64,000 nucleotides of DNA from Phapecoctavirus DIJ07P2: the sequence record OZ035771.1. One strand, 5' to 3'. The notes beneath the pieces are model-generated. The model saw nothing but the letters and a program-made list of their open reading frames with translations, had not been told where the DNA came from and did no database searches. Shown here in pieces: positions 2,626 through 34,390 of the stretch (within the stretch, counting starts at the first letter, position 1; each line of letters begins with the position of its first letter). A program made the translations under genes and the position numbers.

Positions 2626-2631
2626 TGGAGT

Positions 2632-2656: not shown

Positions 2657-2686
2657 AATAGAATGGTCTAATGATAGGAGAGATAA

Positions 2687-4711: not shown

Positions 4712-4715
4712 TAGA

Positions 4716-4740
4716 AGCCCCGAAAGGGGCTTTCTTTTTA
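4716..4740 (+). terminator. rho-independent terminator
   Basis: agccccgaaaggggct hairpin followed by ttcttttta. Confidence 0.6.
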
Positions 4741-4752
4741 TGGAGGGTTTAA

Positions 4753-17038: not shown

Positions 17039-17045
17039 ACTTCAC

Positions 17046-18666: not shown

Positions 18667-18674
18667 TTTCTCTC

Positions 18675-19238
18675 CTAGATAGTTTTACTGTGATCGTGAC
18701 AGTGTAATAAATGATGTATAGACCGTTGAGGATTTGTTTGACCTAATCTGTAAATGTGAAACAGATACATTCCCCGCATCAATCCTAACCTCTTTCCTTT
18801 TTCATGTAAAGTGCGAGAGAAAATTAGGTCGAATTGGATAGATTTTTCTTCGAAAGGAATTTCATTCCACAATGATTTTCTAAAAAGCAAAAAGAAACCT
18901 GCCAGAGGTGTTCCGAAAGGAACTTCTTCAACACTCACTTTATGATATTCTCTTGCAATCTTAGCATATTCTATATGGTTTAGAATATCTGGATCATCGT
19001 TAATTTGGTTAGAGAAAAGCTGATAACCACTACCTAACCTGTTACAAGTTGCACCTATTACATCAAAAGGCGGGTTTGACATAACAAGCTCTTCAAGCAT
19101 AGATGGTTGATCAGGTAGGAGGAACATTGTATCGGTATCTCTTAAGCACACCCAACTATCATCTGGAAGAACGGCAATAGCTTCATTGATAGCCTTGCCG
19201 ATATTTCCTGTCAGATAGGGAGTAATATAATAAATCAT
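18675..19238 (-). CDS. putative nucleotide-sugar transferase-like protein
   Basis: CLRDTDTMF acidic motif after N-terminal YYITPYLTGNIGKAINEAI; weak assignment. Confidence 0.3.
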   Translation of the reverse strand: MIYYITPYLTGNIGKAINEAIAVLPDDSWVCLRDTDTMFLLPDQPSMLEELVMSNPPFDVIGATCNRLGSGYQLFSNQINDDPDILNHIEYAKIAREYHKVSVEEVPFGTPLAGFFLLFRKSLWNEIPFEEKSIQFDLIFSRTLHEKGKRLGLMRGMYLFHIYRLGQTNPQRSIHHLLHCHDHSKTI

Positions 19239-19254
19239 TCTCCCCTCCGTTATA

Positions 19255-19446
19255 TTAACTGTCAGCTACAATCCCACGTTTAATCATCTCTTGTTGGATC
19301 TGGATCACACGATCTCGTGCTTCCATATATTCTTTAAAAGATTCTTGGAGATGATCACGAGCTACATCCCGTAGTTTAATCAGTTTGTCGTTTGTCACTT
19401 CTTGAAGAGAGATCTCGCCAGTTTCATTGGTCCCAAGCGTTTTCAT
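19255..19446 (-). CDS. hypothetical protein (63 aa)
   Basis: track ORF in tight gene string. Confidence 0.4.
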   Translation of the reverse strand: MKTLGTNETGEISLQEVTNDKLIKLRDVARDHLQESFKEYMEARDRVIQIQQEMIKRGIVADS

Positions 19447-19654
19447 TTACAACCTCCTTAATAGCTACTGCACAGTTCTTACAAATACATTGACCTTTGT
19501 TCTTAGAAATTTCAATGTAAGGTTCATTTTCGTTTTCTCCGCGTCGTGAGTCGTATATTACTGTATTGAAGCAGACAACGCAAATGTTTTTAATAACGAC
19601 ATATTTTTGCACTTTCTGTTTAGTGCGAAAATTGACTTCAATGACTTCTCCCAT
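19424..19654 (-). CDS. small zinc-ribbon protein (76 aa)
   Basis: ATG 19654 in ATGA overlap with upstream stop, SD ggggag; CVVC...CKNC. Confidence 0.4.
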   Translation of the reverse strand: MGEVIEVNFRTKQKVQKYVVIKNICVVCFNTVIYDSRRGENENEPYIEISKNKGQCICKNCAVAIKEVVNENAWDQ

Positions 19655-19938
19655 CAATGAATCTCCCCTAAAATGTTGTTTTGAGACATTACTGCGGAGC
19701 ATTCTACAGCATCATGAGTCCTTGCAAAACGCTCCCACAACACAGCATCTACTTTAAGAACCATACAAGGATAAATACTGTCGTTGATCATGTCAATGCT
19801 ATATTTATCTACATCCTTTTCATCTTCCATAAACAAAGTAGCGTATGCTTCTAAATGCTTACGGGTGTAGTATACATCCTCTTCAGTAAGACCGACAACC
19901 AGGTAACTTGCTACAACAACAGTATTATCTTCTTGCAT
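19654..19938 (-). CDS. hypothetical protein (94 aa)
   Basis: internal ATG 19938 with SD aggggag, directly after upstream stop; preferred over overlapping track start. Confidence 0.4.
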   Translation of the reverse strand: MQEDNTVVVASYLVVGLTEEDVYYTRKHLEAYATLFMEDEKDVDKYSIDMINDSIYPCMVLKVDAVLWERFARTHDAVECSAVMSQNNILGEIH

Positions 19939-19939
19939 T

Positions 19940-20461
19940 TTAACTCCCCTTTGGTAGATAGAAACCATGCACTTTATCTCGATAAACAAGACGCATATCA
20001 CGTTCCCAGTGTGTCCTTATATTCCGTTTCTTGAAGTATAGAGCACCTTTAGTAACATCTAAAACAGACCGCAATTCAGGAAAATGTTTCTCTAAATAAA
20101 GTAAACGCTCCGCTATTGCTTTTGCTTCCTGCCACTTATCTTTCTCTGTCACGTTAAAAGTTTTCGCATATGAGAATTGCCCTTTCTGGAACAAGACTCC
20201 TCTAACTGTGTTAGGGAAGTAGGTATCATTTCTTCTGTTGATTACCACATTCCCAACGGCATTCATTCCTTTTTTACCCAGACCGCGACCTTCTGCGTAA
20301 ATTGCACAAGCTAATAGAATTTTATCATTATATTGCTTTGTACATTTGTGAACTACTTTAGCGGTTTTTACGTTTGCAGCTTCGGCTTTCGCCACAACAG
20401 GTGTAAATGTAAAAGCAGTTAAGGATAGTAACGCAACTGTTACAAAGTTTTTTATCAGCAA
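19940..20461 (-). CDS. secreted cell-wall hydrolase (SleB/Hydrolase_2-like)
   Basis: signal peptide MLIKNFVTVALLSLTAFTFTPVVAKA; LACAIYAEGRG...NVVINR block; TTG start with SD aaaggagg. Confidence 0.5.
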   Translation of the reverse strand: MLIKNFVTVALLSLTAFTFTPVVAKAEAANVKTAKVVHKCTKQYNDKILLACAIYAEGRGLGKKGMNAVGNVVINRRNDTYFPNTVRGVLFQKGQFSYAKTFNVTEKDKWQEAKAIAERLLYLEKHFPELRSVLDVTKGALYFKKRNIRTHWERDMRLVYRDKVHGFYLPKGS

Positions 20462-20493
20462 ATTTTGCCTCCTTTTTAAGTTAACGAATTTCT

Positions 20494-20544
20494 AGTATAA
20501 CACGATAGAGGCTTTATTGCAAGAGGGGGATTTCTCCCCCCCTC
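20494..20544 (-). promoter_or_regulatory. GC-rich inverted repeat followed by sigma70-like promoter (TTGCAA-N17-TATACT)
   Basis: gagggggatttctccccccctc hairpin 20523-20544 downstream of TerD-like stop; promoter elements 20494-20522. Confidence 0.4.
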
Positions 20545-20562
20545 AAAATCATTTGTTAATTA

Positions 20563-21165
20563 TTATGGACATTCATACCATTCTTTTTTACCACCGAAGG
20601 CCATCACCACATCACAAATATCCAGACCAGCTTTACCTACACCATATGCTTTCAGCTTCCATTCCCCATCTTCACGAACCAAGGAAGCCACGTGGCAGAT
20701 TGTGTTACCAGCTACTTCAGGAGCCAGGAAGTCAAAATCCAGAATTTCCACATTACGCTCGGAGTCGAAGATTTTAAGCATACCTTCAGAAGCATGACCA
20801 AAACGTTTCAGACCTGTATCATCATCAATGGTCAGAACAAAGGCAATCTCTTGTGCATCAGGAGAGATTTTAGCCAGAGTAATATCAATCTGCTCCATGC
20901 TGCCAGTCCCATCACGAACATCGTCACCAGCGAAGGTAGAACGTTCAGGATCAAACTTGTTAGCATAGCAAACCAGATGACGTGCGGACAGCATTTCAGG
21001 ATTGCCAGCGGCATTATGACGACAAACCAGTGCACTTACATCCAGATCCAGTTTAGAATCAGATTTCCAAGAGAATTCCAGGCGCAGTTCTTTCAGAGCC
21101 GGAGCAACTTTCTTCAGGGAAATTTTTTCGCTAGAGCCTTTTTTCAGGGAAATTTTATCAGTCAT
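20563..21165 (-). CDS. TerD-family protein
   Basis: 200 aa; N-terminal ISLKKGSSEKISLKK and length typical of TerD/general stress 16U family. Confidence 0.65.
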   Translation of the reverse strand: MTDKISLKKGSSEKISLKKVAPALKELRLEFSWKSDSKLDLDVSALVCRHNAAGNPEMLSARHLVCYANKFDPERSTFAGDDVRDGTGSMEQIDITLAKISPDAQEIAFVLTIDDDTGLKRFGHASEGMLKIFDSERNVEILDFDFLAPEVAGNTICHVASLVREDGEWKLKAYGVGKAGLDICDVVMAFGGKKEWYECP

Positions 21166-21180
21166 CTTTTGTCTCCTCTA

Positions 21181-21450
21181 TTATTTAAGTGTAATACCAG
21201 TTACAGTCAATTCTACTTCCAAAAGCTTAGATGTGTTTTGGATTGATACTAATTGTGCATGATGGTTTAGTTCTACAGCAGAATAATCATTTTCCCCATC
21301 ATCTACTTTTAAATAAACAATGATTTCACTAAGGTCTAAACCATTTTCGTCAAATGCATTTTCATAGACGAAAGTATCTCCTACATCCAAATCTTTAATG
21401 GTAAGGCATCGTTTATTTACTTTTTGCTCATCAATTTCGAAGTTTAACAC
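21181..21450 (-). CDS. hypothetical protein (89 aa), paralogue of 22472..22750
   Basis: shared block DLDVGDTFVYENAFDENGLD versus DLGIGDTFMYYDAYEDAGLD; SD aggagg. Confidence 0.45.
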   Translation of the reverse strand: MLNFEIDEQKVNKRCLTIKDLDVGDTFVYENAFDENGLDLSEIIVYLKVDDGENDYSAVELNHHAQLVSIQNTSKLLEVELTVTGITLK

Positions 21451-21679
21451 TTCTTCCTCCTAATGTTATCTCCGGTTTGTATATACGAAGAATTATAGCA
21501 TTTTCATTTTCTTTGTCAACCCATTCTTCATAATCGGGCCATACATGAATCTCTACTCTACTTACAATATCTTCCATTCGCACAGTCCCAATGAAATACT
21601 CTTTGAGACTGCGCATAATGAAAGCTTCTCTCTCGCGCCAATAATTTTCTACGACTTGAGAGGCAAGCTCGTCGATCAT
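21431..21679 (-). CDS. hypothetical protein (82 aa)
   Basis: track ORF; overlaps neighbours at both ends. Confidence 0.4.
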   Translation of the reverse strand: MIDELASQVVENYWREREAFIMRSLKEYFIGTVRMEDIVSRVEIHVWPDYEEWVDKENENAIILRIYKPEITLGGRSVKLRN

Positions 21680-22470
21680 TTTTTAGCACCTACTTTAACA
21701 ACCCACTCTCCGAACTCTTCAGATAAGAGTTTGTCATAAAGCTCTGAATCTGTCAAGTCTAAATCTTTAATGCCAATAAAACCAACATTATCATAAGCAT
21801 TTGCCAGTTCTTTCAGGAAGCCAAACTTCTCATTACCAACGCCAACCATGAACCAATAAATAGGTTTATTCTTATTCTCTTCAATAAGACGACGAACAGC
21901 ACTAGGATCACCATTCTCACCATCCGTCTGGAAGAATACAACACCAGGGGTAACGTCAGCACCTGGTTCAGATACAGCTACAACTTTTTCACGCTCTACA
22001 GACACTGTTTCAGTTTTACCAAGCAGACGATTAAAGAAGCCTTTCTTTGGAGCCTCCTCTTGTACCACTTGTTTAGTGGTAATATATTTGGTAACAGTGC
22101 CAAAATACTCATCGTAGATATCTGCCATTACAGGGGCGTAATTTGTTCCACCTCCGATACGAACATTGCGCATACATTTACCAACATAGTCATCGTAAAC
22201 GTCTGCTGTTGCTGGAGTAAGCTCTTGGGAACTCGTATTGAAGGCCCACATATCAATTTGTTGATTATCGTCGAACAGCATACCAAAAGGAAGCAGTTTA
22301 CCTACAAAATCACTCACTACCCCACTAGAATATAGGCCATGCATACTACCAGAAATATCTAGAGCACATGCTACACGAAGAACAATCTTACCTTCATTCA
22401 GGTTCTTATTCTTTTTCAGAGAGAAAGCAAGGTTTTCTTGACGTTTTTTCAGGCTGATTTTCTCGGACAT
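21676..22470 (-). CDS. von Willebrand factor A (vWA) domain protein, TerY-like
   Basis: MIDAS-type DxSxS motif ALDISGSMHG; N-terminus MSEKISLKK resembles the adjacent TerD-like start. Confidence 0.55.
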   Translation of the reverse strand: MSEKISLKKRQENLAFSLKKNKNLNEGKIVLRVACALDISGSMHGLYSSGVVSDFVGKLLPFGMLFDDNQQIDMWAFNTSSQELTPATADVYDDYVGKCMRNVRIGGGTNYAPVMADIYDEYFGTVTKYITTKQVVQEEAPKKGFFNRLLGKTETVSVEREKVVAVSEPGADVTPGVVFFQTDGENGDPSAVRRLIEENKNKPIYWFMVGVGNEKFGFLKELANAYDNVGFIGIKDLDLTDSELYDKLLSEEFGEWVVKVGAKK

Positions 22471-22471
22471 A

Positions 22472-22750
22472 TTATTTCTCCTTCTTAAGTGTAATATTGG
22501 TAACTTCTAAATCTACTTCCACCATATTTGTATCTGGCGGGATGCAATGAGTATAGCCTCGTTGTGCTAGTGATCCATTAATACAGATCGCACTGTTTGT
22601 GGAATTTTTAATGAACACCAAGTTACGGTAGGTATCCAACCCTGCGTCTTCATAGGCATCATAATACATGAATGTGTCCCCTATGCCAAGGTCTTCGAAA
22701 GCAATAGGTAAATCCTGACACTTTTCTTCTTGAATATTGAATCTAAACAC
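22472..22750 (-). CDS. hypothetical protein (92 aa), paralogue of 21181..21450
   Basis: GTG 22750 with SD gaggagg matches the paralogue's N-terminus; track start 22816 would overlap upstream gene by 74 nt. Confidence 0.4.
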   Translation of the reverse strand: MFRFNIQEEKCQDLPIAFEDLGIGDTFMYYDAYEDAGLDTYRNLVFIKNSTNSAICINGSLAQRGYTHCIPPDTNMVEVDLEVTNITLKKEK

Positions 22751-23306
22751 GCATACCTCCTCTACCAATTTTGAAGCCCAAATCGTAAGCTTCCTTAGTG
22801 ATCTTTTGTAACTCACTTATAGAAAGTGTTACAAGAGGATCATCTTCTTCAATTTCCATCTTGTCATCTTCTGTTTCAATGAGAGTATTATGCACTTTGT
22901 GATAAGGGTTGTCAACACGTTTAAACTTATTCTTTTCTGTGCTGAAAAAACAATCTGGATCTTCTTCACCATCACCCCAACCTTGGTTAGGATCTCCGTC
23001 AGATTGTTCTGTAGGGATTTCACCTGTAAAGTACTTTTCCAGCACCATAGCGATACCGTCTCTTGGATTTGAGGAATGCATTAAATCACAAACCTTACCC
23101 CAATCCATAGCCCATTCGAACCGTTCACGAACGCCATTTTCATCCTCCTTTCCAGAGAAAACACAACCATAACTATCATAGTTGCCATACATCTCTTCAA
23201 TAACAACACCATCCTTCAAAAGAAAGAGATAGCAAGGTGATCCGTCGAAAGAAGTAGAAAGGGCAGCTTTGCCCGATTCCTTACACAAAAAGCTAAAACA
23301 ACCCAT
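22743..23306 (-). CDS. hypothetical protein (187 aa), acidic
   Basis: track ORF; no recognisable motif. Confidence 0.45.
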   Translation of the reverse strand: MGCFSFLCKESGKAALSTSFDGSPCYLFLLKDGVVIEEMYGNYDSYGCVFSGKEDENGVRERFEWAMDWGKVCDLMHSSNPRDGIAMVLEKYFTGEIPTEQSDGDPNQGWGDGEEDPDCFFSTEKNKFKRVDNPYHKVHNTLIETEDDKMEIEEDDPLVTLSISELQKITKEAYDLGFKIGRGGMRV

Positions 23307-23503
23307 TACAAACCCTCCTTCAGATTATCAAGAGCTATAGTGGTTTCACAAAAGTCTCCATACGCTTTATGATGTTCTAGAAAAGCTTCAGGTCCACCCC
23401 AATCATTATCTTGTGTATTCCAACCATCAATAAAAGCATCTTCAATGATTGTGATCAGTTCCTGTCGAGTCAACGTAATGGTATCAGGTTTTGGATTATG
23501 CAT
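23306..23503 (-). CDS. hypothetical protein (65 aa)
   Basis: track ORF; start overlaps upstream stop. Confidence 0.35.
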   Translation of the reverse strand: MHNPKPDTITLTRQELITIIEDAFIDGWNTQDNDWGGPEAFLEHHKAYGDFCETTIALDNLKEGL

Positions 23504-23669
23504 CTTCTTCCTCCTCTAAAATACGAAACCCATAGTTACAATAGTCCTGAAAGGTTTCGTGTGCAAGATCTTCTATATCCTCTTGAGACATATCATCTTC
23601 AATTTCGATATCCACAACCTCATTGCATCCACACCAAGCAGTTTCAATATTCACTCGTAAAGTTTTCAT
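23496..23669 (-). CDS. small acidic protein (57 aa)
   Basis: ATG 23669 in ATGA overlap with upstream stop, SD gaggaag; below track cut-off. Confidence 0.3.
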   Translation of the reverse strand: MKTLRVNIETAWCGCNEVVDIEIEDDMSQEDIEDLAHETFQDYCNYGFRILEEEEDA

Positions 23670-23872
23670 TCTTCTTCCTCATTAAATTCCACATCAGAAA
23701 TAACTTTAAATCTACCAAAGTTACGACAACCTTCATAGATATATCCATCACGACAAGCTGCAAAAATATCTGGAGTTTGTAGCTGGGTCATTGGGGCAAA
23801 GCGTTTCTCTTCGTCATAACGAACACCTATTTCTCCAGCTTGTTCGTCAAGCATGTATACACGGATTCTCAT
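23666..23872 (-). CDS. hypothetical protein (68 aa)
   Basis: track ORF; acidic C-terminus. Confidence 0.35.
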   Translation of the reverse strand: MRIRVYMLDEQAGEIGVRYDEEKRFAPMTQLQTPDIFAACRDGYIYEGCRNFGRFKVISDVEFNEEEE

Positions 23873-24981
23873 TTACCCAACCCCTTCTTAACAGCGTCAA
23901 CCATCCCATCTTCGAGAGATTGAACTTCATTGATATAATCAACACGGGCAGCACGGGCTTCCGTATTGATGCGGTTAGTTTCTTCCAACATCTTAACCAA
24001 GTTTTCCTGATCGTGACGCAGAGTTTCAATATCCAACACTTGACGGTTAGCCAGTGCTGCTGCTTCGATCTGATTCTGTGTGGCAAGATCGCTACCCAGT
24101 TTAATTGCCAGGTTAAATTCATCAAGAACGTTATTCTGTGTCTCTGCGGCTTTCATTTGACGTAAGCTCTCAATATACATTGAGAAGTTAGCAGAGTAAG
24201 CAGGAATAACATTATTTACTATGTTACGCGCAGATCGCATTAAGCTTGCAGAAACTTTTTGCATACCTTGCACACGTGGTCCCATTTGGACACACAGTAG
24301 GCGCAATGCTTTTAAATCCGCAATACGAATCTCCAGAAGATCCAAAGTATCTCGGATCGCTTGTCGCTGTTCTACCGCATCTTCTGGAAGAGCAGCCAAA
24401 GCTTGTTCTTCTTTTTCATAGGTTGCTGTTAGAAGCTGCATATCTCGGTTCAAACTTGCAGCATATTGTCCAATAGCTTGATGTAGCTTTTCAAGATATA
24501 CCAAGGAATCTTCTTCTTTGCGAATATCCATTTGAAGGTTCTTTACCAACTCTTCAATACGGTTATTAACATTATCAAACTCCCCAAACAGGTCTTCTTT
24601 CATACCCATAACTTTTTTAATGAGTTTAGTAATACCTTTGCTTTGTTTAATAGAGTTTGGATCAAGTTGTTTTGCCTGTTTAATCAAAGCTGTGAGTCGT
24701 TCACTCATCTGATCGCCTTGATTACTACGTTGATGTTTTAATACCTCGGCATTCAAGGAACGCAAGGTTGTTCCTGCCTCTGCCCCGATCTCTTCGATCT
24801 CTTGTCGTGTCATAGAAGGTAAAACTGGAACTTCTTGCGGTGCCGCTGGTGCATAAACAGGACTGGCATCTAACACGCTTGGAGCGAATACAGATTTACT
24901 TGCATCTGTTGTTGCAGCAAATACGCTCATTTCAGGTTTCTTCTGACAGCCAGTAGCTGCTTTTAAAAATGGACTTGTCAT
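23869..24981 (-). CDS. TelA-like (toxic anion resistance family) coiled-coil protein
   Basis: 370 aa, predominantly helical/charged, size and genomic context (next to TerD, vWA, TerC) fit TelA/KlaA family; weak by sequence alone. Confidence 0.4.
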   Translation of the reverse strand: MTSPFLKAATGCQKKPEMSVFAATTDASKSVFAPSVLDASPVYAPAAPQEVPVLPSMTRQEIEEIGAEAGTTLRSLNAEVLKHQRSNQGDQMSERLTALIKQAKQLDPNSIKQSKGITKLIKKVMGMKEDLFGEFDNVNNRIEELVKNLQMDIRKEEDSLVYLEKLHQAIGQYAASLNRDMQLLTATYEKEEQALAALPEDAVEQRQAIRDTLDLLEIRIADLKALRLLCVQMGPRVQGMQKVSASLMRSARNIVNNVIPAYSANFSMYIESLRQMKAAETQNNVLDEFNLAIKLGSDLATQNQIEAAALANRQVLDIETLRHDQENLVKMLEETNRINTEARAARVDYINEVQSLEDGMVDAVKKGLGK

Positions 24982-25568
24982 TCTTCATTCTCCTCTTCTG
25001 CATCTCTTATATATGGTGAAACACCGTACTCTTTAGCTACTTTAACCCAATCGTCCCATTTATACAACCATAATTTTCCTTCGGTCCCTTCTTTATCTGA
25101 TTTCAACCACATATTAGGTTGCTTACCTGGGTACATGCGATTAGGTTTACGATTATAACCTCTAACACATCTTGTCGCAAACCTATCTACCAGAACAAGA
25201 ACATATTTATATTCGTGGTTCAACGGCTCTTTGGAAGTGGCTTTAGGATTAGCCCCTAACTCTGCTGCCAGTTTTTGCCAATGAGCACCGTGTCTACTAA
25301 ACTTACCCATACAACCATCAATAGCATGAGCAATTTCGTGCTTCATTGTATCCACGATCATATCTCTTGTAGAGTTCTTATGCAAGTGCCAATTTACAAC
25401 AACAATTTTATCTCGGTAATTGCACCAACCAAAAGAGTTATTCACTTTGTTTCTAACGCAAGCTTTATATCCTGCTTCACGTAACATGTTGTAGTAAACA
25501 GGAAAATCTTCTTTTATTTCCTGCATCACTTCCCACCACAAGAGTTGCAAGTCTCTCTCGGTATGCAT
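24978..25568 (-). CDS. SprT-like zinc metallopeptidase-domain protein
   Basis: HExxH motif in MKHEIAHAIDG followed by GAHWQKLAAELG. Confidence 0.4.
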   Translation of the reverse strand: MHTERDLQLLWWEVMQEIKEDFPVYYNMLREAGYKACVRNKVNNSFGWCNYRDKIVVVNWHLHKNSTRDMIVDTMKHEIAHAIDGCMGKFSRHGAHWQKLAAELGANPKATSKEPLNHEYKYVLVLVDRFATRCVRGYNRKPNRMYPGKQPNMWLKSDKEGTEGKLWLYKWDDWVKVAKEYGVSPYIRDAEEENEE

Positions 25569-25571
25569 AAC

Positions 25572-26165
25572 TTACACCTTAAAAGTGAAATGCGTGGTCG
25601 TGGCTTCAAAATCAGGACCAGATAAACGTGCACTGAAATCTGAAATATTTGTAATTAAAAAGCTTTTATGCATACCTAACACAGCCACGCTTTCAATATC
25701 TTCTACTAACATTTCAATCATGTTAGAAACATGGCTGAACGTAGGGTTTTGTTTTTTGATGGTGTAGAAAGAAAGATTCCCACCTGCTGTATAAGATACC
25801 TCTTCAAAATCTTTAATCGTATATTGTGTGCCATCAGTAAAGAAAATGGTAGCTTTATTAGTAGCACGTTTCTTGTTTTTTGGTCCTTTTTTACGTTTAC
25901 TGCGAGTAGGCAAACCGTTTGGGAACACCATAGCTACAAATTCTTCAGGAGAAACCTCCTTACCGAAATCATAACCATAAGAAACAGCGTCTATAAACTC
26001 GTCGTCTTCATTTTTAAAATAATGAAAATAGGGCCAATTTGAGAGATTATCGAGCATCTTATGCTCATCCACAGCAGAGAACGTATCCCTCAAAGCACGT
26101 GTGATTTGCAAAGCATTAGGCAAACTTTTAACACCTGTAATGGAAGTACGAATAGAAATTGTCAT
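25572..26165 (-). CDS. hypothetical protein (197 aa)
   Basis: track ORF; basic patch RSKRKKGPKNKKR. Confidence 0.45.
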   Translation of the reverse strand: MTISIRTSITGVKSLPNALQITRALRDTFSAVDEHKMLDNLSNWPYFHYFKNEDDEFIDAVSYGYDFGKEVSPEEFVAMVFPNGLPTRSKRKKGPKNKKRATNKATIFFTDGTQYTIKDFEEVSYTAGGNLSFYTIKKQNPTFSHVSNMIEMLVEDIESVAVLGMHKSFLITNISDFSARLSGPDFEATTTHFTFKV

Positions 26166-26179
26166 TGTTTTTCTCCTTA

Positions 26180-26617
26180 TTAACGTCGCTTGCTACGAGA
26201 TGAACTCTTTTTACTTAAAGGGCTATTGTAAGATTTACGAGTTGTATAGCTACTATTTGTTTTAAAAGTTTGTCTCGGCTTTTCATAAGTTTTTGTCTCT
26301 TGTTTAGGCTTACCATAAAAATTAGTTTTCGGTTTAGGTGTATTATAATGCTTATTAATAATCGTTCTGTTATCGTTATAATCCCCGCCACTACGATTAC
26401 TACCACCGCTCATCATATGCCCTAACAACATACCTGTAGCAAACTCACCAACACCGCTACTACTAGAACCGCCACCATTGTTGATAATAGTTGTATCTCC
26501 ATCAGATCCTTGTTGGGCGTATTGTTGAGGAGGTTGTTGGTATTGTGCAGGATTTGTTTCATCCTCGCAAGCTGTTAAAAAGATACAACCAATTAAAATC
26601 AGGGCTAGTTTTTTCAT
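26180..26617 (-). CDS. lipoprotein with glycine-zipper and Gly/Ser-rich region
   Basis: start moved to ATG 26617 (SD gaggaaag); signal peptide plus lipobox MKKLALILIGCIFLTAC; GVGEFATGMLLGHMMSGG. Confidence 0.5.
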   Translation of the reverse strand: MKKLALILIGCIFLTACEDETNPAQYQQPPQQYAQQGSDGDTTIINNGGGSSSSGVGEFATGMLLGHMMSGGSNRSGGDYNDNRTIINKHYNTPKPKTNFYGKPKQETKTYEKPRQTFKTNSSYTTRKSYNSPLSKKSSSRSKRR

Positions 26618-26804
26618 ATTTGCTTTCCTCATTTTGACTATTAATACATCTGTGTTTGAAATCTCCAGAGAAGCAATAAATTTGCTCTCCATCTCGGTAT
26701 AAACTCACTTTACTGCCGTTGATTACGCTTGTCAATACAAAAATTACAACAAACAACCCTATTGCAAAACAGATATTTTCAAACACAACCAACAAGTATT
26801 TCAT
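26559..26804 (-). CDS. small membrane protein candidate (81 aa)
   Basis: track ORF; hydrophobic N-terminus; ATGA overlap with upstream stop; 3' end overlaps lipoprotein start by about 59 nt, so uncertain. Confidence 0.3.
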   Translation of the reverse strand: MKYLLVVFENICFAIGLFVVIFVLTSVINGSKVSLYRDGEQIYCFSGDFKHRCINSQNEESKYEKTSPDFNWLYLFNSLRG

Positions 26805-27151
26805 TTTAAAAATACCTCATCATCAGTTTCATTATCCCAGAAGAACAAATCCCAACCATTTGGATCGTTCCATTTGGCTGCTGGAGAAGTCCATATTTGC
26901 TCGATATCAATATTCAAAACTTCACCGTTTCGTTTTGAAACAGCTTTAGTTAATTCCCAACGGGATACAGGCTCCACTTCCCCTGAACCACTCCCACAAC
27001 AAGCTACCACATTAGGAGGCAAATTAATTGGATCTTTGGTCACGATCATAACGCTTACCCCAGGGTAAACTTTTGAAAGATAATCTAAAACGTAATCCAC
27101 ATCACCAGATAAATCCCAAACAAGTTCTTGAATTTCATCAAAATTATTCAT
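26801..27151 (-). CDS. hypothetical protein (116 aa)
   Basis: track ORF; acidic, Trp-rich. Confidence 0.45.
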   Translation of the reverse strand: MNNFDEIQELVWDLSGDVDYVLDYLSKVYPGVSVMIVTKDPINLPPNVVACCGSGSGEVEPVSRWELTKAVSKRNGEVLNIDIEQIWTSPAAKWNDPNGWDLFFWDNETDDEVFLK

Positions 27152-27193
27152 AAGTCTCTCCTATAAAATAGCCTCCCGAAGGAGGCTCATCTA

Positions 27194-28168
27194 TTAAACA
27201 GCAGCTTCTTCTTTTTCAGGGAAGATAAAGCTTGCAATAACACCAAGAGCTAATGTGCCTAGAACAATCATCAGACTTACGTTAGGGGAAATATCATGCG
27301 GGAGGAATGACCACTTGGCATGAAGTGTTTCACCGAACGGGTGATACATAAGTTTAGCACCGACAAACACCAGAACCACAGCAACAGCTTTCTCTAAGTG
27401 AACCAGATATTTCACAGCTACACTTAACACAAAGAAAAGTGCACGTAAACCAAGAACAGCCATCAACATTGCAGAATAAACTAGCAGAGGTTCTTGTGTC
27501 ACACCGATCACAGCCGGAACTGAATCAAAAGAGAAGACAATATCTGTAAGCTCAATTACAAACACACAAAGAAGAGCAGGAGTTGCATATTTAATACCAT
27601 TCTTAATGGTAATGAACTTTTCACCATCCAGTGCATTGTGCACAGGCAGAACTTTACCTACTAAACGAACAGCCCAATGCTTAGAGTAATCAATATCCTC
27701 TTCTTCGTCACCACCTTTGATGATAGCCACGGCAGACCAAGCTACAATCAAACCGAACAACACTTGGACCGACCAATGAAGGTTAAACAAAGCGGTCCCT
27801 GCTGCAACAAAAATACCTCGGAAGACAATGGCTCCTGCAATCCCCCAAAGTAGAATCTTATGTTGGAGATGTGTGCTCTTAATTCCAAAGCTTGCAAAAA
27901 TTGCCATGAACACCATTAGGTTATCTACAGAAAGACTCTTTTCCAACACATAGCCACTTAGGAAAAGCGCGGCAAACTCTTTACCATGTTCTACCCAAAT
28001 GAATGCGTAATACCCTAAAGCTAAAGCAATCCAAAAAACAGACCAAAGCAAAGCAGATTTAATTCCAATTTCTTTATTCTCTTTATGACCAAAGAAATCG
28101 ATACCAATAGACAATGCTAAAATACCAACTAAAACAACTACATCAATAATTGGGAAACCGAGTTGCAT
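27194..28168 (-). CDS. TerC-family integral membrane protein
   Basis: multiple TM helices; characteristic SLSVDNLMVF and FSFDSVPAV motifs; ATG 28168 with SD gagaggag. Confidence 0.6.
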   Translation of the reverse strand: MQLGFPIIDVVVLVGILALSIGIDFFGHKENKEIGIKSALLWSVFWIALALGYYAFIWVEHGKEFAALFLSGYVLEKSLSVDNLMVFMAIFASFGIKSTHLQHKILLWGIAGAIVFRGIFVAAGTALFNLHWSVQVLFGLIVAWSAVAIIKGGDEEEDIDYSKHWAVRLVGKVLPVHNALDGEKFITIKNGIKYATPALLCVFVIELTDIVFSFDSVPAVIGVTQEPLLVYSAMLMAVLGLRALFFVLSVAVKYLVHLEKAVAVVLVFVGAKLMYHPFGETLHAKWSFLPHDISPNVSLMIVLGTLALGVIASFIFPEKEEAAV

Positions 28169-28185
28169 TCTTTTCTCCTCTCTTT

Positions 28186-28244
28186 GCGGGGAACTATTCC
28201 CCGCTTCATGTGATATATCTTACTCTTTTTAAGAACTATGTCAA
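28186..28244 (-). promoter_or_regulatory. sigma70-like promoter plus 5' GC stem-loop cassette (same design as early-gene array) upstream of TerC gene
   Basis: minus strand TTGACA-N16-TAAGAT then atatcacatgaa and stem-loop gcggggaatagttccccgc, SD, ATG 28168. Confidence 0.5.
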
Positions 28245-28247
28245 CAC

Positions 28248-28469
28248 TTATTTTGTTGAATGAGAGGAAAAGATTCCTCGTAATACCGCCAAAATAAACG
28301 AAACACAAACCACGGTCCAGAAGGTTACTGGGACAGTGATATCTGCATGACCCATAACTTCAGCAACATAGTTGTAAGCCAGCAACAGTAACCAAGCTGG
28401 AATCAAACTAAGCATAAAAGCAATAACAAAAAAGCTTACCACTGCAACAATACCTGCAAAAACACCCAT
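28248..28469 (-). CDS. small membrane protein (73 aa)
   Basis: track ORF; two hydrophobic helices. Confidence 0.45.
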   Translation of the reverse strand: MGVFAGIVAVVSFFVIAFMLSLIPAWLLLLAYNYVAEVMGHADITVPVTFWTVVCVSFILAVLRGIFSSHSTK

Positions 28470-28481
28470 ACTAATCTCCTC

Positions 28482-28955
28482 TTAAAGTTTATAAATAGTC
28501 ACATCGTGACCTGTTTTTACTAAAGTTTCTTCAATCATCACTTGGATGATAGCCCAATTACCTCCGGCATGTCCCGCTCCAATCATAGGTAAACCGATCT
28601 TACATTTTTGGTCACGGAGAAGCAAATCATTAGCCATAGCTATTAGTGCATCGTAAAGTGCATCATAGTCCAACTGACGACCTTTACTATTGTATCCATA
28701 ACGATACTGTCCATAAAGGTTGTATACCATAGGGTTAGGATAATCTTCTGGTTCCCCTAAACTAAAAGAACCAAGCTTTTTCTGGTTTCCTGCTCCTGTA
28801 GCTAAATCTGCTTCGTATGCATATGGAAACGCATATTTTATTTGTGGGGCAATACCTGCCCCCATATTACACATACAGTTGCAACAATGAGCAATAACAG
28901 TTACTTCACCTGCTTTAGCGGCATCAATAAGATTACCTGTTTTCATTTTAAGCAT
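28482..28955 (-). CDS. macro domain-like protein
   Basis: start moved to ATG 28955 (SD taaggag) to avoid 92-nt overlap; IAHCCNCMCNMGAGIA and IGLPMIGAGHAGG resemble macro-domain glycine-rich blocks. Confidence 0.4.
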   Translation of the reverse strand: MLKMKTGNLIDAAKAGEVTVIAHCCNCMCNMGAGIAPQIKYAFPYAYEADLATGAGNQKKLGSFSLGEPEDYPNPMVYNLYGQYRYGYNSKGRQLDYDALYDALIAMANDLLLRDQKCKIGLPMIGAGHAGGNWAIIQVMIEETLVKTGHDVTIYKL

Positions 28956-28968
28956 TTTTAGCTCCTTA

Positions 28969-29796
28969 TTACAGAATGTGTTGTTTTGTGTAACGATCCA
29001 AGAATTCAAAGTTTTCAGCATACTTTGAAATTCGGTTGTAACCTTCTCCCAAGCATCCAAAGAAAAGTTGCTCTACATAGTAGTGTGGCAATTGACTAAG
29101 AATGATTTTGAAGTCTTCATGATTTTGGCCCATAAGATATTTAATAGGACGAACAAGACACTGTGCATCACGTTCTTCATTAATCATTTTAACAAACGCT
29201 TCTGGTGTATTAATGTAGTTAAAATTCAGTTTAGCTTCGGTATCTGCTTGATTACCTTCATATTTTGCAAAATACAGGAAGTAAACATCATTTTTAACTT
29301 GATTTTCATCAAGGATCTCAATCAGTTTGTCTTCATGCGTTCCAGTGATATTTACATCATCAATGAATACAAGCTTCTTATCACCCCAGAATTCTTTGTT
29401 ACAGTAGAATGTATCCCCATCAATAAGTTTCTTACGACTAGCTTTATCCAAGAAGCCATAATCGTTAATATAGCTAACTTTACGATGAATAATATCCAGT
29501 TCTGCTGAACGACCTTGATTATATTGTGATTGCAACATGTTAAAGTAATTAATAAAATGATCTGTCATCATTGTTGCAGCATTATGCACATGGTTGTAAG
29601 GAGAAGGAATGATAACAAATTGTTCCCCAATATGTTTCATTGCCACTTGAGCAAAAAACTGAAGTGCCAATTCTTTACCCATACGACGCGCGGCTTGGTT
29701 ACTACCAAATTTCAATTTTGAATAATCTTGGATATCAAAAGTAGCAGTTTCCAGGTCATCAAATTTATTTGCAAAAATTTGAGTTTGATTACGCAT
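28969..29796 (-). CDS. phosphoribosyltransferase (PRTase)-like protein
   Basis: PRPP-binding-type motif KLVFIDDVNITGTHED. Confidence 0.4.
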   Translation of the reverse strand: MRNQTQIFANKFDDLETATFDIQDYSKLKFGSNQAARRMGKELALQFFAQVAMKHIGEQFVIIPSPYNHVHNAATMMTDHFINYFNMLQSQYNQGRSAELDIIHRKVSYINDYGFLDKASRKKLIDGDTFYCNKEFWGDKKLVFIDDVNITGTHEDKLIEILDENQVKNDVYFLYFAKYEGNQADTEAKLNFNYINTPEAFVKMINEERDAQCLVRPIKYLMGQNHEDFKIILSQLPHYYVEQLFFGCLGEGYNRISKYAENFEFLDRYTKQHIL

Positions 29797-30445
29797 TTAC
29801 AATTTCTCCTCTTTTAAGTTTCTCTAGTAAGTCGTTAGGGTTCTTAATATGACAGAAGTTAAATCCTAAGTCAACACATTTTCCATCATATTCTTCACTA
29901 TCGCCTACGTGCAATACTTCGTGCCCTAACAGAGGGATCGGAGAATATGTGAGCGTGCGAGCAAAGAATCGCGGATCTGGTTTACAAAGTAAAGCTTCAT
30001 CCGAGAAATGGGTGAACTCAAAACAATTCCAACTATCAAACTTACAAGCACGACGCAGGATATCCCCTGATATAAAGTTGGTATTGCTCTTAATACTCAA
30101 ATCATAACGTCCCGAAAGATACAGCAAGTACATCGGCAGATCCACGGCTACGTGTGGTGGAAACTTAAGGAACCACTGTTCACACTCGAAACGAAGCTTT
30201 GCAGACTTCCAAGGTGTTATCCCAAGTTCAGAACCAAGTCTTTCCCAGGCGTATGCTGCACACTCGGCTTTGCCTTGAAGTGCTGCATTATCCAGTTCCT
30301 TTTTGATCTTCTTATAAGCTGCTCTTGCTTCCACTTCCGTAATATCTCCATATTTTGCGATAGTCCAGGCTCGCATGTCTGCGTAATTGGAGTTTGCTGT
30401 GATCAGTGTGTTCCATACATCAAAAGAGATATGTTTAATAGTCAT
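29789..30445 (-). CDS. HAD-superfamily hydrolase (dehalogenase-like subfamily)
   Basis: motif I ISFDVWNTLI, motif III LCKPDP, motif IV HVGDSEEYD. Confidence 0.55.
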   Translation of the reverse strand: MTIKHISFDVWNTLITANSNYADMRAWTIAKYGDITEVEARAAYKKIKKELDNAALQGKAECAAYAWERLGSELGITPWKSAKLRFECEQWFLKFPPHVAVDLPMYLLYLSGRYDLSIKSNTNFISGDILRRACKFDSWNCFEFTHFSDEALLCKPDPRFFARTLTYSPIPLLGHEVLHVGDSEEYDGKCVDLGFNFCHIKNPNDLLEKLKRGEIVNA

Positions 30446-30446
30446 A

Positions 30447-31052
30447 TTAAGCCCACCATGCGTCTAAGTTAAGATTACTGTCCACTACCACTTGTTCTAT
30501 GTGGTAGCCTTTTATCTGTATCCCACTGTTCAAGAGCATATCATACGCTTCATTGAAACGCAACTTATCTTCTGCGGAATATAAGCGAGCATTATAAAAT
30601 CGGTAATCAATTTCTTCAGCATTAGAAGAAATACGGAAGAAGTTTGTTTCTACTTCGGGATCACTTGCTGAAGTCTTAATGTGAACTTCTCCATAATTTT
30701 CTTTACTTAGATCCATGAAAAGAACACAGGCAACATGTTTAAACATTCGTTCCAGTTTGTAACGAACAACATTGAAACCTGCATTCTCAAGTTTTTCTAC
30801 ACACTGCAACATTAAAGTAGTGTCGAGATCGCTTTGATACTTTGTTAACATACGATCACGTTGAGACTTTGTATCCCGATGTAAATCAATTGTTGTGCAT
30901 TTGGCACCAATAATCTTAGCTGCTTTCATCAACTCTTCAGAACTAACGTTAGATAAAGTAAGATGAAAATGGGCTTTCCACACTTTTTTAGCAGGGACAC
31001 CAAAAGATTTATCCCCATTATTCGGCATGTTGACTACTACACTATGTTGCAT
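30447..31052 (-). CDS. hypothetical protein (201 aa)
   Basis: track ORF; ATG 31052 with SD gaggag; possible HxT-type motif AHFHLTL, too weak to assign. Confidence 0.45.
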   Translation of the reverse strand: MQHSVVVNMPNNGDKSFGVPAKKVWKAHFHLTLSNVSSEELMKAAKIIGAKCTTIDLHRDTKSQRDRMLTKYQSDLDTTLMLQCVEKLENAGFNVVRYKLERMFKHVACVLFMDLSKENYGEVHIKTSASDPEVETNFFRISSNAEEIDYRFYNARLYSAEDKLRFNEAYDMLLNSGIQIKGYHIEQVVVDSNLNLDAWWA

Positions 31053-31067
31053 TACTTATCTCCTCAC

Positions 31068-31259
31068 TTAAAATGGAAGTCTTTGAAGTTCATCTCCTCC
31101 GATATCAAGTAATTTAGCAACATCTCGATCAGAAAGCAACTCTTTTCTTTGTAAAATATCCACAAGGGTTGCAAGAATCTCCTTAACGTCCCGATCACTG
31201 TTCTTCAACAGTTCTCCTGCCGTCCCTACTCTATCTCCTACAGCAAAATATGTAACCAT
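31068..31259 (-). CDS. hypothetical protein (63 aa)
   Basis: internal ATG 31259 with SD taggaggt preferred over track start that overlaps nrdG. Confidence 0.4.
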   Translation of the reverse strand: MVTYFAVGDRVGTAGELLKNSDRDVKEILATLVDILQRKELLSDRDVAKLLDIGGDELQRLPF

Positions 31260-31272
31260 GAAACCTCCTAAG

Positions 31273-31743
31273 TTAATCTGATTGCCAACCACTTGCCGTT
31301 TTGGTCCATAATCTTTGATTATCTGACCCTCTGAAAGGTTTTGTAGTTGGATTGTTTATTTCATACTTTCCGTCTACAATAATGTCAACAAGATTTTTAA
31401 TATATAAAGGCACTTCCTCAAAAGTATATCCTGTATACACCATTATATCTTTGCTTGACCCATAAACGTCTCTAACCTTTTCTATAAGGCTTTTAACATT
31501 GTAAATATTCTGCGGATCTAATGGTTCTCCTCCTAAAATTGTTAAACCTTTTACAAACGGTCTTGACAAATCTTTTAAAACTTGCTCTACATTTTCGTGA
31601 GTAAACGGTTTCCCGTAAGAATAAGACCAGGCTTTTTGGTTAAAACAGCCACGACAACCGTGGCTACAACCACTAACCCAGAGGGAGCACCTAACTCCCT
31701 CGCCATTAATAAGATCTACAGGTTCATATCCTGCAAAATTCAA
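31273..31743 (-). CDS. nrdG: anaerobic ribonucleotide reductase activating protein (radical SAM)
   Basis: CxxxCxxC cluster CSHGCRGC near N-terminus; about 156 aa; immediately downstream of nrdD; TTG start in TTGA overlap with nrdD stop. Confidence 0.8.
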   Translation of the reverse strand: MNFAGYEPVDLINGEGVRCSLWVSGCSHGCRGCFNQKAWSYSYGKPFTHENVEQVLKDLSRPFVKGLTILGGEPLDPQNIYNVKSLIEKVRDVYGSSKDIMVYTGYTFEEVPLYIKNLVDIIVDGKYEINNPTTKPFRGSDNQRLWTKTASGWQSD

Positions 31744-32711
31744 AGATGTTTCTCCCTTTGCAAAACTTCCTGCATTTTACCTTTGTTGTAAGGGCGTGAA
31801 TTAGGGGCAGAAAGATACCCTGACACACGTCTAACTACAGAAATAGTTTCTTCTTCATGGTTGCCACAATCAGGACACTCAAACCCTTTAGCCGTTGCCT
31901 TAAATTCTCCATGAAAACCACACTTAAAGCATTGATCCACGGGCTGATTAATACCAAAATAGTGAATATGTTCATAAGCGTAGTCTACTAAAGTCTCCAA
32001 AGCTTCTAAGTTATTCTTTAAGTTTGGTGTTTCGACATAACTTATGTTACCACCATTGCTAATCTGTGCAAAACCTGCTTCATAATCCCATTTTTCAAAA
32101 GGATTTGTTACCAACCATACAGGTTGGTGAAAAGAGTTGGTAAGATAATCTCTTTCTACCAAACCTGGGTATTTTTCATTTAAAGCTGTTGCAAACTTAT
32201 AGCACAAGGATTCTGCTGGAGTTCCATAAAGACTAAACGCCAAATTAGATCGTTCTTTAAACACAGCACACACATCTTTCATATGTTGCAGAATGCTTTT
32301 ACCAAGTTCCTTTTTATCTTTTTCTTCTGGATAAAGGATTTCCAAAGCTTCGGCAAGACCTACATAACCAATACTAATAGAAGCATAACCACCTTCAAAC
32401 AAAACACCAATTTCATCATTGGCATTTAAACGCGCTAAAGCCCCTTCCATGAAAAGAATAGGGTTTTCAGATGCTTTGGTATGCCTAATACGGTTTACAC
32501 GTAACATGTGAGCATCGTAGGCTATCTCCATATGTTTATTAAGGAGGTCGGTGAAAGATTCTCCTTTACTTCTCGCTTCCGCAGCAATCAGAGGTAAATT
32601 GATAGAAACTACTCCAAGGTTGAATCGTCCATCATATTTTTCTCCTTGCTCTGTTGCATAGTATGACAAGAAACTTCTACACATTATGTTCAAAGTGGCT
32701 CGCAAGGCCAC
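31740..32711 (-). CDS. nrdD: anaerobic ribonucleotide reductase, C-terminal part (glycyl-radical domain)
   Basis: C-terminal Cys4 (CFKCG...CPDCG) and glycyl-radical motif RVSGYL; separated from N-terminal part by HNH endonuclease insertion. Confidence 0.75.
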   Translation of the reverse strand: MALRATLNIMCRSFLSYYATEQGEKYDGRFNLGVVSINLPLIAAEARSKGESFTDLLNKHMEIAYDAHMLRVNRIRHTKASENPILFMEGALARLNANDEIGVLFEGGYASISIGYVGLAEALEILYPEEKDKKELGKSILQHMKDVCAVFKERSNLAFSLYGTPAESLCYKFATALNEKYPGLVERDYLTNSFHQPVWLVTNPFEKWDYEAGFAQISNGGNISYVETPNLKNNLEALETLVDYAYEHIHYFGINQPVDQCFKCGFHGEFKATAKGFECPDCGNHEEETISVVRRVSGYLSAPNSRPYNKGKMQEVLQREKHL

Positions 32712-34324: not shown

Positions 34325-34390
34325 TATTAATCCTTATTTTGTGAGTAGAACTATTATTCTACCTCTTCCAACCGAAAAAAGCTTTGAGGG

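Follow-up and report, generated by a model that had tools for sequence, protein, structure and literature searches.

The window analysed here, a 64-kb stretch of Phapecoctavirus DIJ07P2 (OZ035771.1), carries between positions 20563 and 30445 a set of genes related to the bacterial Ter (tellurite-resistance) systems, together with a pair of predicted small-molecule enzymes. All genes of this segment lie on the minus strand, at the coordinates given by an earlier annotation made from the letters of the window (the sequence-only reading), and the minus strand is used by all genes from 7.5 to 44 kb of the window. The source phage belongs to Phapecoctavirus (phAPEC8-like, Stephanstirmvirinae). Along its whole length, the 9.9-kb segment shares 94–97% identity with dozens of E. 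coli myoviruses deposited for this genus, among them phAPEC8, nepoznato, anhysbys, ESCO13 and SKA64. It matches 101 phage records, of which 62 cover at least 80% of it. The stretch is a real Ter-type membrane-stress gene set with a two-enzyme small-molecule cassette in a virulent E. coli phage. Five Ter-linked families score far above threshold inside 10 kb, which rules out a chance assembly (Table 1).

The TerC protein belongs to the Alx subfamily, with a score of 319 bits against the NCBIfam model TIGR03718 (Alx; cut-off 246 bits). Like E. coli Alx, it has five acidic transmembrane residues. Specifically, E76/D82 and E206/D209/D215 of the phage protein have a spacing identical to that of E86/D92 and E213/D216/D222 of Alx, in which substitution of any of the five abolishes Mn2+ export. 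The TerD-domain protein aligns with Klebsiella TerD (2kxt; 1.5e-15), and the Ca2+-binding signature GDNrTGEGDGDDE of the latter, which reads GDD-VRDGTGSME in the phage, is only partly kept. Homologues of the vWA protein, 30–32% identical, lie beside TerD, HAD and PRTase_3 genes in uncultivated phages. The TelA-family protein is 78% identical to its counterpart in phi92 (Justusliebigvirus). Each of the four occurs once, with no second copy of TerD, TelA, vWA or TerC in the window.

The two-enzyme cassette consists of a HAD-superfamily hydrolase and PRTase_3, a ComF-like phosphoribosyltransferase (PRTase) whose gene overlaps the HAD stop codon by 8 nt. The loop that binds phosphoribosyl pyrophosphate (PRPP) is intact in PRTase_3 (FIDDVNITGTHE). 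Across 24 sequences, reaching down to 36% identity, loop residues D146, D147, I150, T151, G152, H154 and E155 are invariant and T153 is kept in at least 90%. The hydrolase falls below the Pfam cut-off, has NCBIfam matches to REG-2-like and YjjG-like HAD-IA models, and has bacterial orthologues that exceed the Pfam cut-off. Its assignment is secured because the nucleophile Asp, the motif II Ser/Asn, the motif III Lys and the motif IV GD...D are invariant across orthologues (invariant positions D9, W11, T13, S120/N121, K155 and G181-D182...D187). Motif I is atypical, reading D9-V-W11-N-T, with Trp in place of the general-acid Asp of phosphatases. This D+2 Trp (D-x-W) is invariant in phage, bacterial and fused orthologues, none of which has the phosphatase DxD.

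The HAD gene lies directly upstream of PRTase_3 in every phage locus fetched and in 11 of 11 loci from 100,044 reference genomes. Likewise, a hydrolase or HAD feature is annotated beside PRTase_3 in most of the matches listed for the 156 phage records that contain it. An exhaustive HMMER search of 1.84 billion proteins gave 495 PRTase_3 cluster representatives, several of them fusion proteins: HAD-PRTase_3 (~500 residues), PRTase-HAD-PRTase_3, and PRTase_3 joined to a second PRTase. Always adjacent, sometimes fused and with an invariant D-x-W, the pair is an autonomous cassette and the most conserved piece of the module. It stands alone in Ensifer/Sinorhizobium chromosomes. In the Rhizobium phages that have it away from Ter genes (RHph_TM30, 10623–11873), its neighbours include an annotated PurA-type ('2-aminooxy') adenylosuccinate synthetase, a cytidylyltransferase, DHFR and a metallophosphoesterase, a setting of nucleotide metabolism or nucleotide modification.

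A contig from a Tannerella metagenome-assembled genome (MAG), L026, has the cassette in a different setting. Between 1996 and 13489 it holds a string of three TerD genes, two vWA genes, TerY (vWA plus TerY_C), PP2C, a Ser/Thr kinase, HAD and PRTase_3, and a P-type cation ATPase of the Ca2+ type follows the HAD-PRTase_3 end of the string. As judged from gene content, this locus ties the cassette to divalent-cation transport as well as to Ter/TerY-P loci of the bacterial type. The Jug phages of Bacteroides likewise pair terD genes with a calcium P-type ATPase (PMC12880540), and this short contig may therefore derive from a phage instead of a chromosome.

Table 1 Features of the Ter module and its accessory genes, in order of position in the window
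Feature	Coordinates	Strand	Evidence or remarks
Terminator-like hairpin GAGGGGG...CCCCCTC after terD	20523..20544	-	Read from sequence; annotated terminator at equivalent ASO2A position
TerD-domain protein	20563..21165	-	Pfam PF02342, 98.9 bits (cut-off 25.3), 3.2e-28
Paralogue A, 89 aa, Phapecoctavirus-specific	21181..21450	-	PHROG 11278
82-aa open reading frame (ORF) with internal putative sigma70 promoter facing paralogue A and terD	21431..21679	-	Promoter 21492-21519
vWA protein, TerF C-terminal type	21676..22470	-	Pfam PF10138 (vWA-TerF-like), 130.1 bits (cut-off 29.4), 1.6e-37
Paralogue B, 92 aa, just upstream of vWA gene	22472..22750	-	PHROG 11278; 63% identical in phi92
187-aa protein	22743..23306	-	N-terminal ~135 aa form a widespread phage family with invariant MGCFSF..C and DPNQGWG
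Three small ORFs of 68, 57 (DUF7167-like) and 65 aa	23306..23872	-	Only the 65-aa ORF is conserved in phi92
TelA-family coiled-coil protein	23869..24981	-	Pfam PF05816, 116.6 bits (cut-off 30), 1.7e-33
SprT-like zinc metallopeptidase	24978..25568	-	Pfam SprT-like, 36.7 bits (cut-off 25.6); HEIAH at residue 77
197-aa protein	25572..26165	-	PHROG 27550; partly conserved in phi92 gp179
Predicted lipoprotein, start at internal Met MKKLALILIGCIFLTAC	26180..26617	-	Lipobox LTAC after MKKLALILIG
Small membrane protein, 81 aa	26559..26804	-	Kyte-Doolittle maximum 2.64; 49% identical in phi92
116-aa protein, Phapecoctavirus-specific	26801..27151	-	PHROG 27498; no phi92 homologue
Putative intrinsic terminator after terC	27170..27187	-	AGCCTCC-TTCG-GGAGGCT then AUUUUAU, from sequence
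TerC, Alx subfamily inner-membrane protein, putative Mn2+/divalent-cation exporter	27194..28168	-	Pfam PF03741, 138.3 bits (cut-off 27.8), 3e-40
terC 5' leader hairpin GCGGGGAA-TAGT-TTCCCCGC	28185..28204	-	~6 nt past predicted start site; no U-tract after
Putative sigma70-type promoter of terC	28217..28244	-	TTGACA, 16-nt spacer, TAAGAT; 10/12 consensus matches
Small membrane protein, 73 aa, upstream of terC	28248..28469	-	Kyte-Doolittle 19-residue maximum 2.72; 60% identical in phi92
Stand-alone macro domain, 157 aa, ALC1-like (TARG1/DarG/SCO6735) class	28482..28955	-	Pfam Macro, 24.2 bits, just above cut-off 22
PRTase_3, ComF-like type I phosphoribosyltransferase	28969..29796	-	Pfam PF15610, 143.7 bits (cut-off 28.7), 9e-42
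HAD-superfamily hydrolase	29789..30445	-	Pfam Hydrolase, 21.2 bits (below cut-off 26.4); conserved motifs
201-aa protein, 1-nt gap upstream of HAD	30447..31052	-	PHROG 22504; AlphaFold2 (AF2) model of two ferredoxin-like repeats, pLDDT 82.9

Within the co-directional string, terC appears to form a transcription unit of its own, with a promoter, a leader hairpin and a terminator. Equivalents of its promoter are present in tuntematon, phiWec188, KP2025 and phi92, and the position is annotated as a promoter in ASO2A. The leader hairpin has a GC-rich stem of 7–8 bp and is followed by a strong Shine-Dalgarno sequence; the stem is kept by compensatory changes, reading GCGGAGG/CCTCCGC in phi92 and GAGGGAG/CTCCCTC in KP2025. 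A UUCG-loop terminator lies at the same place in the same four phages. The short leader with its conserved hairpin sets phage terC apart from E. coli alx, which has a yybP-ykoY riboswitch leader instead. An Rfam E-value scan of 19000–33000 gave no such riboswitch ahead of terC, its only match being to a group I intron. Recent capture of a host alx gene was considered as an origin of terC and rejected, blastn giving zero matches in 5,426 E. coli genomes.

At the other end of the module, the putative promoter that faces paralogue A and terD has 12 of 12 consensus matches plus the TG of an extended -10 element (TTGACA, 16 nt, TGcTATAAT), and terD of phi92 is preceded by TTGACT-17-TAAAAT. Thus, terC and terD each probably have their own conserved sigma70-type promoter, from which host RNA polymerase could transcribe them without phage factors. 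The hairpin after terD marks the downstream end of the module, ahead of a SleB-type endolysin gene.

Profile searches bear out the family calls that the sequence-only reading had made from motifs alone, the HAD call through the orthologue alignment. Its DxSxS MIDAS (metal ion-dependent adhesion site) motif is intact in the vWA protein (D38-I-S-G-S), its paralogous pair of small genes is confirmed by BLASTP (1e-14) and by a shared PHROG, and its lipoprotein and small membrane proteins agree with the lipobox and with two strongly hydrophobic small ORFs. The promoter that it noted ahead of terC, and called early-type, is of the sigma70 type and conserved in five phages, the window included. The link that it drew to bacterial Ter systems and their PRTase/HAD enzymes is upheld by PRTase_3 membership and by the TerD/vWA/TerY-P locus of L026. 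Also correct is the placement in a replication region. In the annotated relative SKA64, one flank of the module consists of a primase/helicase, four glycosyltransferases and a SleB-type cell-wall hydrolase, and the other of NrdG, an intron-split NrdD and a UvrD helicase.

To define how widely the module is kept, at least 60% identity was taken as the level of the Stephanstirmvirinae-like clade, and the clade primase/helicase served as denominator. With tblastn, PRTase_3 is found in 156, TelA in 224 and TerC in 176 phage records. At the clade level the counts are 131, 131 and 132 records, respectively, versus 133 for the primase/helicase. As far as these homology counts go, the module is a near-universal core feature of Stephanstirmvirinae. 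In phi92, the order is the same, with HAD, PRTase_3, macro, small membrane protein, TerC, lipoprotein, TelA, the 187-aa protein, a paralogue, vWA and TerD at 49–81% identity. Absent from phi92 are the SprT-like peptidase, paralogue A, the proteins of 116 and 201 aa and several of the small ORFs, all of them genus-specific additions that do not belong to the system.

More distant phages narrow the module to a core. Four phage-like metagenomic contigs (L005–L008) carry PRTase homologues of about 47–50% identity, and within 8 kb hold TerC, TerD, vWA-TerF, HAD and PRTase_3 in varied orders. TelA is detected in one of them; proteins of 389–402 residues beside TerC in L005 and L006 were not detected by the small TelA profile. 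These loci contain neither the macro and SprT genes nor the other proteins of unassigned family in the window. All seven Brevundimonas phage records (7/7) carry PRTase_3, TerC and TelA, at dispersed positions. On this comparison, the conserved core is TerC, TerD, vWA and HAD-PRTase_3, with or without TelA.

These comparisons also bear on three points of the sequence-only reading. The module cannot be called near-complete beside bacterial ter loci, having no TerB, one TerD, one PRTase and no TerY-P kinase or phosphatase. Nor is it unexpected, being present in nearly all clade-level records, annotated in GenBank and discussed in the literature. SprT, one of the paralogues and several small ORFs, which it had noted as interspersed genes, are not conserved parts of the module. 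In the neighbourhood comparison that it proposed, the linkage recurs in phi92, L005–L008 and L026, and the arrangement proves common in related phages.

The unrelated Cronobacter phage A24 (75 kb, Grimontviridae) carries at 239–5777 a string of genes for a PRPP-synthetase-like protein, an NAPRTase/NAMPT-like protein, a 65-aa ORF, TerC, a 68-aa ORF and two TerD proteins, with an endolysin gene further on. Here TerC and TerD are paired with PRPP-type enzymes for a second time, independently, and once more near a lysis enzyme.

We propose that the module is a genuine phage Ter system, in which a cation-dependent inner-membrane complex and a ribosylated metabolite would serve envelope and cation homeostasis together with exclusion of competitors. 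This combined statement has, in our judgement, about an even chance of being right. Its parts differ in strength: the identity of the system is near-certain, and the specific physiological role is tentative, with roughly a third of our belief. Specifically, TerC, TerD, TelA and the vWA protein would form a complex that depends on divalent cations and sits on the cytoplasmic side of the infected cell's inner membrane. HAD-PRTase_3 would convert PRPP and a base-like acceptor to a ribosylated, nucleoside-like small molecule that acts with the membrane complex. During infection, the two together would stabilise the homeostasis of the envelope and of cations (Mn2+/Ca2+) and would render the infected cell refractory to secondary invaders such as superinfecting phages and colicins, as with plasmid ter operons.

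The cation link is suggested because acidic residues occur at Alx spacing in TerC, the MIDAS motif is intact and TerD resembles the Ca2+-binding Klebsiella protein. Persistent linkage despite rearrangement is a standard argument for a functional unit, and the module is taken as one because the linkage of its core persists in different gene orders across unrelated phage contigs. Similarly, the two enzymes are coupled, being adjacent in all loci examined and fused in some organisms, and their catalytic motifs are invariant. In a more specific version of the proposal, the product of the D-x-W HAD and PRTase_3 switches the TerC/TerD/TelA/vWA complex, which then blocks entry or DNA injection by competitors or defuses envelope-triggered abortive infection. 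This version is improbable as it stands; if true, a metabolite-switched complex would for the first time give a Ter system a function at the level of mechanism, and would do so in an E. coli phage that is amenable to genetics.

Several observations weigh against the proposed Ter system. No TerB was found by Pfam in the 23 ORFs scanned; TerB is listed with TerD as a ligand-binding component (Iyer et al. 2021, PMC7824862). The Ca2+-binding motif of TerD is degenerate, with three acidic residues replaced. No protein of the region matches a PADLOC defence model as a Ter component. The promoters are evident at the level of consensus, and the region as a whole contains 45 promoter-like sites versus 39 +/- 8 in shuffled controls. 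Because the HAD protein has no general-acid Asp, 'nucleotide to nucleoside' chemistry is plausible and not assured. No Ter genes lie within ~9–10 kb of HAD-PRTase_3 in Rhizobium phage TM30, XaC1, CcrColossus and Ensifer/Sinorhizobium, and therefore the product need not act on Ter proteins; XaC1 has TelA and TerD elsewhere in its genome. Finally, we found no experiment on any phage Ter gene in the literature.

An alternative is that the string is not one system at all, and consists of independent accessory genes gathered in a permissive early region. TerC would then tune Mn2+, the macro domain would reverse ADP-ribosylation, HAD-PRTase_3 would belong to nucleotide metabolism, and TerD, TelA and vWA would be separate stress proteins. 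The self-contained terC unit fits this explanation, as does its allelic variation. Specifically, Phapecoctavirus has two terC alleles whose proteins are ~73% identical, while the 9.9-kb region is ~95% identical overall. The divergent allele is found in tuntematon, Mt1B1_P17 and ESCO37. Comparison of the window with the relatives L012 and L013 reveals the promoter, leader hairpin and terminator with both alleles, a pattern that suggests exchange of a terC cassette. Moreover, TerC occurs in Proteus, Vibrio and Pectobacterium phages with no match to this PRTase_3, HAD-PRTase_3 occurs amid nucleotide metabolism with no Ter genes nearby, and SprT, the 201-aa gene and paralogue A vary between genera. 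However, independent genes would hardly be expected to keep TerC, TerD, vWA-TerF, HAD and PRTase_3 together in varied orders in unrelated phage contigs, to place HAD-PRTase_3 inside the TerD/TerY-P locus of L026, or to co-occur in a genome even when dispersed, as in the Brevundimonas phages and XaC1. Retention of the parts in nearly every record that has the clade-level helicase points the same way. We therefore regard a string of independent genes as unlikely, though it deserves serious weight.

A second alternative concerns the enzymes and the macro domain, which may together counter host immunity based on NAD+ or ADP-ribose. The macro domain would strip DarT-type ADP-ribose from phage DNA, HAD-PRTase_3 would make or destroy a ribosylated metabolite on which such immunity feeds or by which it is blocked, and the Ter proteins would be bystanders or a membrane branch. 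For the phage macro gene, the ATG at 28955 is the most probable start, in line with the annotation of homologues and in preference to the TTG at 29060, and the protein shares 50% identity with the C-terminal portion of phi92 gp185. Its best PDB match is SCO6735 (5e3b; 7e-13), followed by the DarG macro domain (5m31; 1.6e-6) and TARG1 (4j5r; 8e-6), and it matches DarG of PADLOC at 1.2e-10. The G-Q and IGxGxAGG motifs align with Gln85 and Gly128 of SCO6735. The protein thus combines an SCO6735-type Gln, which replaces the catalytic Lys of DarG and TARG1, with the G-x-G-x-A-G-G phosphate loop common to its best sequence matches. SCO6735 cleaves thymidine-linked ADP-ribose off DNA and gives protection against DarT (PMC9411070). 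By analogy, an anti-DarT role for the macro gene, separate from the Ter system, is a reasonable hypothesis.

Gene neighbourhoods offer this counter-defence explanation some further support. The macro gene adjoins PRTase_3 in both genera, XaC1 has a macro homologue 8 kb from the pair, contig L006 has PnuC-like and NadR-like (AAA_28) genes 2–4 kb downstream of PRTase_3, and the Prs-like and NAMPT-like pair of phage A24 abuts TerC and two TerD genes. However, PRTase_3, a family of type I PRTases, is separate from NAMPT/NAPRTase, no macro gene is present in the L026 locus or in the metagenomic Ter loci, and neither HAD nor PRTase_3 matches any PADLOC or anti-defence model. The macro protein is also a domain of only 157 residues that scores 38 bits against the DarG equivalog NF048014 of NCBIfam (cut-off 250), and it has neither the DarT-binding C-terminal domain of DarG nor an adjacent DarT. 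For the trio of HAD, PRTase_3 and macro, a counter-defence role is improbable.

A host-benefit set that confers tellurite, metal or xenobiotic tolerance on infected or pseudolysogenic cells, prolonging their survival to yield phage, is very improbable: several GenBank records and papers use the label 'tellurite resistance' or list TerD as an auxiliary metabolic gene, xenobiotic resistance in pseudolysogeny is a secondary idea of Iyer et al. (PMC7824862), and the title of PMC12054061 gives K. pneumoniae terC a part in resistance to tellurite and zinc, but the phages are virulent with short infection cycles, the classical determinants TerB, TerA, TerZ and TerE are missing, and tellurite is unrealistic as a selective agent in gut or sewage.

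The existence of the Ter module is already known, both as a class and in this lineage, and the finding of it here adds little beyond published annotation. Each family of the module already has its annotation in GenBank, in the SKA64 record for instance. A 2024 paper, with reference to the 2012 phi92 paper, reports for vKMB37 and phi92 an 'alx-like ter cluster' (PMC11162368), and Klebsiella phage phiKp34 has terC, terF vWA, terD and telA, "also reported in virulent phages" (PMC8386662). Ter clusters were previously described in Acinetobacter vB_AbaM_ME3 and Caulobacter jumbo phages as well. Iyer et al. described jumbo-phage Ter systems with PRTases and HAD enzymes, of the same functional classes as here, and proposed their use against superinfecting phages (PMC7824862). 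Gut metatranscriptomes show high transcription of terD operons of phages (PMC12880540). The proposals of host manipulation, exclusion and counter-defence made by the sequence-only reading repeat such published speculation. We found no functional or transcriptomic study of the Stephanstirmvirinae module. What is new here is that a conserved core is defined, that HAD(D-x-W)-PRTase_3 is recognised as an enzyme unit that is autonomous and sometimes fused, that terC and terD are predicted to be transcribed separately, and that the macro domain is placed in the SCO6735/DarG/TARG1-like class.

Among the closest known systems is phi92 gp171–gp187, with the same families in the same order and differences at the genus level only. 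The window adds the SprT, 201-aa, paralogue A and small-ORF genes, and is without gp171 and the N-terminal extension of gp185. The bacterial terZABCDEF cluster (IncHI2 plasmid R478, E. coli O157 and Klebsiella) has TerC, TerD-domain proteins and the TerF C-terminal vWA in common with the window. It has five TerD paralogues (TerZ/A/D/E/F), whereas the window has one TerD, no TerB and a vWA protein that is not fused to TerD. Other than that, the window differs by the addition of TelA, by its location in a virulent phage and by the sigma70-type promoters predicted for it. The ter cluster of R478 has phage-inhibition and colicin-resistance phenotypes, to judge from a title cited in PMC8386662.

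In bacteria, Ter genes are accompanied by enzymes of the same kind. Anantharaman, Iyer and Aravind reportedly described in 2012 a Ter-associated PRTase/HAD module for a 'nucleoside-like metabolite', along with the TerY-P triad. Like the phage cassette, that module, as far as it is summarised in PMC7824862, pairs the same PRTase_3 family with a HAD partner. The phage differs by its single PRTase, by D-x-W rather than D-x-D in HAD and by the lack of TerY_C, PP2C and kinase, none of which has a Pfam match in the region. The vWA protein has no PADLOC match, the TerY-P models of PADLOC find nothing, and the TerY-P triad (TerY, PP2C phosphatase, Ser/Thr kinase) is not present. Searches of the region revealed neither ATP-grasp enzymes nor members of any other biosynthetic family. 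The Bacillus subtilis operon yceCDEFGH, with three TerD proteins, TerC/YceF, YceG and TelA-like YceH, is co-directional and is not known to include TerB. Nor is it known to include vWA, PRTase_3 or HAD; it is chromosomal and belongs to an envelope-stress sigma-factor regulon.

Few bacterial 'stress' genes that still await a mechanism are as widespread as the Ter genes. That nearly all members of a subfamily of virulent coliphages keep them, with host-type promoters, implies that the module pays off within one infection cycle. E. coli K-12 supports growth of both Phapecoctavirus and Justusliebigvirus phages, which therefore offer a practical system for the function of Ter proteins and of the HAD-PRTase_3 product.

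The remaining genes are less closely tied to the module, and the macro, SprT-like, 201-aa and 187-aa proteins probably have separate accessory functions. The SprT-like gene is a Phapecoctavirus-specific insertion found in neither phi92 nor any distant Ter locus examined. The 201-aa protein is likewise restricted to Phapecoctavirus and absent from phi92. Two 'AbiEi' hidden Markov models of PADLOC match it at 4.7e-13, along almost the whole of each model; no Pfam family matches it, and its AF2 model has no confident PDB neighbour. Its residues H28, H30, T32, H124, K126 and T127 are invariant or nearly so. The 187-aa protein has a confident structure model with no PDB neighbour, and its family occurs outside Ter loci too; it is probably not a Ter component. 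The lipoprotein has a Gly/Ser-rich middle and a basic tail, and its phi92 orthologue, gp180, has an annotated signal peptide.

Downstream of the module, past the SleB-type hydrolase (19940–20461), there are four consecutive glycosyltransferase-like genes (17046–19238 and 16097–17041). One of them has a weak match (1.3e-3) to the TET-associated glycosyltransferase (TAGT) family, which might point to glycosylation of DNA or the surface. On the other side, nrdD is split into an N-terminal part (33446–34333) and a C-terminal part (31740–32711). Between them lies a group I intron-like element on the minus strand (32732–32971), which scores 39.7 bits against Rfam RF00028, below the gathering score of 50 (E-value 2.6e-7), and carries an HNH/NUMOD-type homing endonuclease ORF (32834–33343). 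A spliced NrdD is annotated at the same place in phi92.

Several near-identical copies of the phage are also deposited under unlikely labels, namely Campylobacter phages B15 and C3, Acinetobacter phage ABPW7 and Klebsiella phage ZCKP1. Others are a protein labelled 'Escherichia coli' from a contig of 151 kb, and a MAG contig labelled 'Proteobacteria bacterium' that is 99% identical. Such records suggest that hosts were mislabelled or that phage contigs were binned with genomes.

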